A stretch of DNA of 23,513 bases from a virus (lineage: Duplodnaviria; Heunggongvirae; Uroviricota; Caudoviricetes), in the IMG/VR virus record IMGVR_UViG_2737471866_000003; one strand, given 5' to 3'. Positions 22,653 to 23,513 of this stretch are shown here, one piece after another (position 1 is the stretch's first letter; each line of letters opens with the position of its first letter). Both the position numbers and the translations under genes were made by a program. Below the pieces are notes generated by a model. The model saw only the letters and a program-made list of their open reading frames with translations. It did no database searches and was not told where the DNA came from.

Positions 22653-23513
22653 TGATCCTACCCACGTAATATGGACACAGGCCTAAGCGAGGTTCTTGTT
22701 TTCAAATTGTTCCGGACTGAGGCCGCCACACCAACTGTGCCGCCGCCACCGATTGTAATCACATTCGATATAATTAAATACCGTTGCCCGCATTATTTCC
22801 CGGCTGATAAAGTGTTCTCCATGGATACATTCCACTTTCAGCGAATGAAAGAAGCTTTCCACGCAGGCATTATCGTAGCAGCAACCTTTTGCGCTCATAC
22901 TTCCACGCAGATTATGCCGCTTCAGTTGCGCCTGATAATCTGCTGAACAGTACTGGCCTCCACGGTCCGTGTGAACGATAACGTTCCGGGGCCTCTTACG
23001 CCGCCACAGCGCCATCTGCAGGGCATCGCAGGCCAGTTGCGCCGTCATGCGTGGCGACATTGACCAGCCAATAACGGCACGTGACCACAGGTCAATGACC
23101 ACTGCCAGATACAGCCAGCCTTCATCTGTACGTAAGTACGTGATGTCTCCTGCCCACTTCTGGTTCGGGCCACTGGCGTAAAAATCCTGCTCCAACAGAT
23201 TTTCTGACACAGGCAGGCCGTGTGCGCGGTAGCTGACCGGGCTGAACTTCCGGGAGGCCTTTGCCCTCAGTCCCTGACGGCGCAGGCTTGCCGCCACGGT
23301 TTTTACGTTAAAGGGGTAACCCTGAGCACGCAGTTCATCCGTCAGGCGTGGGGCACCGTAACGCTGTTTTGACCGGGTAAAAGCCGCGAGGACAACGCTG
23401 TCGCAGTGTTGGCGGAACTGCTGACGCGTGCTTATCCTTGTCCGCCGCTGACACCACGTATACCAGCCGCTGCGGGCCACCCGGAGCACGCGGCACATTG
23501 CTTTGATGCTGAA
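22653..23513 (-). mobile_element. IS3-family insertion sequence (IS3-like), right-end terminus at 22653; element continues beyond the window end
   Basis: The plus strand from 22653 reads TGATCCTACCCACGTAATATGGACACAGGCCTAAGCGAGG..., the IS3 terminal inverted repeat as I recall it, immediately followed by the orfB transposase on the minus strand. Confidence 0.85.
22683..23498 (-). CDS. insF: IS3 transposase OrfB (DDE integrase core), C-terminal about 271 aa; the OrfA/frameshift part lies beyond the window
   Basis: Track ORF 22683..23498 (-). ...[34 protein letters not shown]...[15 protein letters not shown]...[10 protein letters not shown]... is the DDE motif region and matches IS3 InsF as I recall it. 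Confidence 0.85.

Follow-up and report, generated by a model that had tools for sequence, protein, structure and literature searches.

The DNA analysed here, a stretch of 23,513 nucleotides from the IMG/VR virus record IMGVR_UViG_2737471866_000003 (hereafter the window), carries the late genes of an mEp460-like lambdoid prophage on its minus strand and ends inside an insertion sequence situated upstream of cos (Table 1). Every late gene in the window is of full length, with complete domain matches, except lom (~2971-3590, minus strand). This gene differs from the intact 621-nt lom of the Escherichia coli EC11 prophage only by the loss of one G from the run of five at ~3378-3382. An earlier note on this DNA, made from the sequence alone, had described lom as frameshifted, and the comparison with EC11 bears this out; the indel is a frameshift of very recent date or else a sequencing error in the homopolymer. 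At the other extremity, the tfa stop codon has its last base at window position 1. Relatives continue from there with potB, potA and pepT, and in EC11 the other prophage end, with int, adjoins potC. Thus, in the close relatives the prophage sits at the potABCD operon.

Table 1. Features of the window, listed from the insertion sequence towards the late genes
Feature	Coordinates	Strand	Basis or remark
IS3, 3' 861 nt	22653..23513	-	Identity to MG1655 IS3A; remaining 397 nt lie beyond the contig/window end
orfB (insF), C-terminal 276 codons and stop; DDE/rve transposase domain	22683..23513	-	NF033516, Pfam
Right terminal inverted repeat (IRR), TGATCCTACCCACGTAATATGGACACAGGCCTAAGCGAGG	22653..22692		28/40 against IRL in the full-length copy of L005
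ATT, cos-proximal copy of the 3-bp target-site duplication (AAT in late-operon orientation)	22650..22652		Triplet flanks both IS3 ends in L005, L008, L001 and L003
Non-coding spacer from cos to the insertion point, accessory right-arm end	22188..22649		No Pfam-supported ORF
cosN (predicted 12-nt cohesive end GGGCGGCAGCGG, 22176-22187) and cosQ-like box (CGGGTCCTTCCGGTG, 22203-22217)	22176..22217	-	Alignment to the joined lambda ends and the cdtI end
Terminase small subunit (DUF1441 type), first late morphogenesis gene downstream of cos	21507..22001	-	Pfam PF07278
TerL (terminase large subunit)	19405-21507	-	Gene call
Rest of late operon: TerL, portal, ClpP-capsid fusion, tail Z, U, V, G, T, H, M, L, K, I, J, lom, stf, tfa	1..21507	-	Gene calls and Pfam

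The insertion sequence is IS3, as the earlier note had proposed. Its visible part, 22653-23513, aligns without gaps and from end to end with the annotated IS3A mobile element of E. coli K-12 MG1655, with 860 of 861 nucleotides identical, and corresponds to nt 398-1258 of IS3, i.e. its last 861 nt. The window's own OrfB ORF scores 328.6 bits against the NCBIfam model NF033516 'IS3 family transposase' (cutoff 160), and its Pfam matches, namely rve (5e-28), rve_2, rve_3 and HTH_21, include the DDE (rve) domain. The terminal repeat starts exactly at 22653 (TGATCCTACCCACG..., also read TGATCCTACCCACGTAATATGG...). The termini of the element are TG...CA, and it has imperfect inverted repeats of ~40 bp, the left member of which was read in the complete copies of four related prophages, L005, L008, L001 (that of EC11) and L003. 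The single mismatch between the window and the IS3 copy of L005 is synonymous, leaving the OrfB translations identical, and the full copy of L005 has one mismatch to MG1655 IS3A over 1255 aligned nt. In L005 orfA (99 aa) overlaps orfB (288 aa), and both frames are intact there and in L008; the copy in EC11 is annotated by PGAP with a 'programmed frameshift'. IS3-like sequences are present in 4473 of 5426 complete E. coli genomes, with a median of 3 and a maximum of 19 places per genome. This is a known element with known behaviour, and its presence here implies no new biology.

The transposase of IS3 is encoded on the minus strand, as are the terminase genes and the whole head-tail operon; the co-orientation of the element with the late operon, likewise described in the earlier note, is therefore real. 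The position of cos follows from a comparison of lambda with the minus strand ahead of the small terminase gene (/ marks the nick). This strand reads CGGGTCCTTCCGGTG...GCCACG/GGGCGGCAGCGGCGCGG, with GGGCGGCAGCGG as the predicted cohesive end after CCACG/. The aligned lambda counterpart is cosQ...TTACG/GGGCGGCGACCT, the junction of the lambda right and left ends being ...GTTACG/GGGCGGCGACCTCGCGGG. Because of this alignment, and because the record of phage cdtI ends at the homologous ...GCCACG, the nick is placed between 22187 and 22188; the start of the mEp460_4F5 record maps to ~22192, a few bases away. The IS3 end lies 465 bp upstream of this predicted nick, in agreement with the distance of about 460 bp given before. 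The insertion leaves cosQ, cosN and cosB untouched.

The spacer that separates cos from the insertion point is present in uninterrupted form in 16 complete E. coli genomes. A 90-aa ORF at 22145-22417 on the plus strand is called as a gene in several assemblies, and we regard it as a doubtful gene: it lacks a Pfam match and extends across the cos nick, and is probably spurious or else intact only in the circular or prophage form. A perfect palindrome with 16-nt arms and a 5-nt loop (TTATAGAAGTCCTTCA / TGAAGGACTTCTATAA) is found at 22542-22578, 75 bp from the IS3 insertion point. The insertion itself is intergenic and interrupts no gene; it is situated 98 bp upstream of the ATG of a divergent DUF1398 (ybcV-like) gene.

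Only a part of IS3 is visible, and the reason is to be found in the assembly. The draft contig JWZO01000007.1 (GCA_000819085.1), retrieved via an exact TerL protein match, agrees with the window at all of 14,109 nt (100%) and breaks off at the same base; the window stops inside IS3 because its source contig does. Short-read assemblies normally break inside multi-copy IS elements, and the truncation of IS3 is such an assembly break in a multi-copy repeat rather than a biological truncation. The position of the IS3 end at the extreme tip of a draft contig might also suggest an assembly chimera, in which the element is not truly adjacent to cos. However, the identical occupied junction is present in 9 complete E. 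coli genomes, in several independent assemblies and in two IMG/VR contigs (of the EC11 type or too short), which leaves a chimera with practically no probability. Exact-pattern scans of the GTDB representative genomes found neither the cos joint nor the IS junction, and the cos-joint pattern had no exact match in IMG/VR. None of the complete E. coli RefSeq genomes has the whole 1.5-kb window end, the nine best matches sharing it only from cos rightwards.

There is a mosaic breakpoint exactly at cos (cosN, 22170-22190). The right-arm end, with the identical IS3 junction, is common to the window and nine complete genomes (EC11, 1303, XJ34 and others), which have a lambda-type cosB, Nu1/A and E/D head module in place of the window's sequence to the left of ~22170-22181. 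It follows from the breakpoint at cos that the IS3 insertion either preceded an exchange of packaging modules or was moved by one. We had considered horizontal spread of an IS3-bearing phage as evidence of viability, and dropped this argument because the EC11-type carrier is at the same potC/potB locus, so that vertical descent and recombination explain the sharing.

What lies beyond the contig end can be read in prophages that are nearly indistinguishable from the window. L005 (GCA_012049525.1) has one mismatch to it over 14,109 shared nt, and L008 (the complete genome CP057891.1) one over 10,260. Both have a complete 1258-bp IS3 at the same site with a clean 3-bp AAT/AAT duplication, and a full 1258-bp element with matching AAT duplications is likewise found at the exact window junction in L001 (EC11) and L003. 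In another prophage, L006 (GCA_052814315.1), which is 99.985% identical, the site is empty (...GGATGATAATTGTCAGAG..., with a single AAT), and the 20-odd late genes visible in the window are 99.99% identical to those of the IS-free allele. The reconstructed empty site was recovered from 16 complete E. coli genomes, 4 of them at 98.4-99.4% identity. An empty site in so close a prophage indicates that the insertion is a recent simple polymorphism and not a product of long-term decay.

On the far side of IS3, L005, L008 and EC11 have on the opposite strand the DUF1398 gene followed by bor, and then on the late-operon strand genes for a GH108 endolysin, two holins, an AraC-type (AraC-HTH) regulator, Q (PF06530), RusA and a DUF968 protein, all of which are full-length calls. 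No spanin genes were recognizable in the lysis cassette of either the IS3-bearing or the IS-free allele. The earlier note had proposed that the sequence past IS3 be inspected for the other end of the element, its target-site duplication and a continuing lysis region. In the near-identical L005 and L008 the element is complete, the AAT duplication is clean and the lysis region continues. As a separate matter, these prophages are less uniform outside the late operon (L005 1-1033 against L006 and L008): from 99.99% across the late operon, identity falls to 99.2% over Q and the lysis genes. Upstream of a 92-aa gene that precedes the DUF968 gene they are unrelated, with Peptidase_U49-like, hok/Rem and FRG as alternative cassettes; these relatives are therefore no guide to the early region of the window prophage.

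The sequence stops before the left end of IS3, and in the window's own genome the element could in principle be the joint of an IS3-mediated deletion or inversion that has parted the late operon from Q and the lysis genes, leaving a truly defective prophage. Such events would not lack partners, given the 3 (median) to 19 IS3-matching places of E. coli genomes, and in a Qin-like remnant of E. coli TUM9754 IS1 and IS3 are situated exactly at the boundary of the truncated early region. Nevertheless, in every resolved genome with the exact junction (L005, L008, L001 and L003) the element is a simple insertion with matching AAT triplets, and a contig break in a multi-copy IS is what short-read assembly ordinarily yields. 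We accordingly regard a rearrangement joint as very unlikely, and the window's own genome is expected to have the same simple insertion as its relatives.

The TUM9754 remnant merits a description in its own right. It has the same TerS as the window, and IS1 and IS3 (L018 3406-5393) abut a truncated rspB. The remnant lacks the early region and has frameshifts in the terminase and lysozyme genes. It is a case of real IS-associated prophage decay in a relative.

For the window prophage the most satisfactory reading is a different one, which we consider probable: a complete IS3 has recently entered a non-coding spot of the right arm, where it is a neutral or mildly costly passenger and neither the cause nor a reliable sign of inactivation. 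By this account a 1258-bp element would have transposed recently into the accessory right-arm end of an mEp460-like lambdoid prophage. It would have taken the usual route of the IS3 family, in which OrfAB is produced via programmed -1 frameshifting and copy-out/paste-in transposition generates a 3-bp target duplication. As pointed out previously, the late transcript has to cross IS DNA, and the relatives show that this comprises all 1258 bp, traversed in the sense direction from a start downstream of Q. RNA polymerase modified by a lambdoid Q protein resists intrinsic as well as Rho-dependent terminators throughout the late operon, a distance of more than 20 kb, and relief of IS polarity is a classical effect of lambda antitermination. 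Since Q-modified RNA polymerase ignores terminators, traverse of IS3 by the late transcript would be expected to be tolerated, and late expression and packaging would be predicted to survive in the window's own genome. A consensus scan of the sense strand from the endolysin gene to the terminase gene, including IS3, detected no terminator-like hairpin of the intrinsic type.

IS insertions are classically polar, and one could instead suppose that IS3 forms a polar block separating the morphogenesis operon from the lysis genes, such that the head and tail genes are off and the prophage is cryptic and decaying. The 1258 bp that the late transcript has to cross and the frameshifted lom fit this picture, as do the tail-deletion derivatives among the carriers of the same IS3. 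So does a survey of deposited phage genomes, in which a full-length IS3 was found in 0 of 50,697 records, and hence no direct example of a virion with IS3 itself. A partial IS3 match in phi467 was discarded as a precedent, its context being unrelated. Against a polar block, the insertion is intergenic and spares cos, the scan recovered no sense-strand intrinsic terminator, and Q antitermination is established as a suppressor of both terminators and IS polarity. Further, the 20-odd late genes are intact and 99.99% identical to the IS-free allele, and hence betray no sign of relaxed selection. As to lom, it is an accessory outer-membrane gene, and lytic growth of lambda does not need it. Finally, a related element, IS629, is carried in packaged DNA of Stx phages (PMC4587872). 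Taken together, these points make a polar block unlikely.

The earlier note had combined IS3 with the lom frameshift into a picture of a decaying or cryptic prophage. This part of it does not find support: the target is intergenic, cos is intact, the visible late genes are full length and lom is accessory. The visible part shows no loss of an essential gene, and the near-identical relatives have an intact Q and intact lysis genes. The additional length of IS3 is also unlikely to be limiting for packaging, because mEp460, Ayreon, phi458 and relatives, viable phages whose TerL is 99.1-99.7% identical, have genomes of 42-46 kb and the IS3-bearing prophage of EC11, at the same chromosomal site, measures ~44.6 kb from int to tfa. 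Separately, the EC11 prophage has a frameshifted exonuclease-like gene.

Tail deletions are found in L008, which carries the insertion, and in L011 (DAJPLY010000012.1). Both prophages, otherwise identical to the window's, have a 12.4-kb deletion from window position 874, in the 3' part of stf, to 13254, at the start of the tail chaperone gene G, with a TAA microhomology at the joint (L008 18252-18254). With T, H, M, L, K, I, J and lom lost, these prophages are clearly defective, for a reason other than IS3. The L011 contig stops at window position 22649, immediately short of the insertion site.

An independent IS3 insertion (L002 9472-10729) is present in E. coli XH988 (NZ_CP019355.1), in a related prophage that shares the terminase module. 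This copy, flanked by CAG duplications, runs in the direction of the late operon and is placed 284 bp upstream of the homologous nick; intact Qin-type lysis genes are located beyond it. There are thus two independent events in the same orientation, with duplications AAT at 465 bp and CAG at 284 bp from cos, and the same occupied AAT junction is linked to two different head modules. One might speculate from this that the accessory stretch upstream of cos is a recurrent, orientation-biased landing pad for IS3 in mEp460- and lambda-like prophages. Q-dependent read-through would there neutralize polarity and drive a burst of transposase on induction, making the phage a vehicle for IS3. We mention this as a long shot, to which we would attach little probability.

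The practical lesson is one for annotators: an IS at the end of a contig in a prophage should not be taken as evidence of a truncated or dead prophage. The occupied and empty alleles in otherwise 99.99% identical prophages make up a clean natural pair for asking if phage yield changes when the late transcript has an IS3-family element to cross.

Compared with known systems, the element has no substantive difference from the IS3 of K-12 (IS3A-E; insE/insF), the type element of the IS3 family. It has the same terminal repeat and OrfB, and the full copies in the near-identical prophages resemble K-12 IS3 in being 1258 bp long with a 3-bp target duplication; the element of the window departs from it by one synonymous base and by its chromosomal or prophage location. 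The host prophage is closest to mEp460, Ayreon and phi458, all of them lambdoid siphoviruses in which a small terminase of the DUF1441 type is combined with a ClpP-capsid fusion. Their TerL proteins are 99.1-99.7% identical to that of the window and their DNA is 87-95% identical on the cosB side, but they are without IS3, and past ~22402 the ends of their right arms diverge from the window.

The region of the insertion has the same architecture as the nonessential region between Rz and cos of lambda, which contains bor and a ybcV-like ORF (47.0-47.6 kb). In both cases accessory genes opposite in strand to the late operon are placed between the lysis cassette and cosQ, and the DUF1398 gene has ~82% DNA identity to lambda 47147-47565. 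In contrast, the lysis cassette of the near-identical prophages is of the holin/holin/GH108 type, and that of lambda is S/R/Rz.

A further parallel is offered by IS629/IS1203 in the Stx-converting lambdoid phages of E. coli O157:H7. That case differs in involving IS629 rather than IS3, and in that the Stx phages are short-tailed, with genomes of 61-65 kb, and not mEp460-like siphoviruses. As in the window, an IS3-family element of ~1.3 kb is situated in the Q-dependent late region. DNase-protected DNA from ciprofloxacin-induced O157:H7 yielded closed Stx2a phage genomes with 0-3 copies of IS629, one copy in the induced Stx2a phages being downstream of stx2 (PMC4587872). Phages that are otherwise identical differ in these insertions, which do not preclude induction or encapsidation (PMC4587872).
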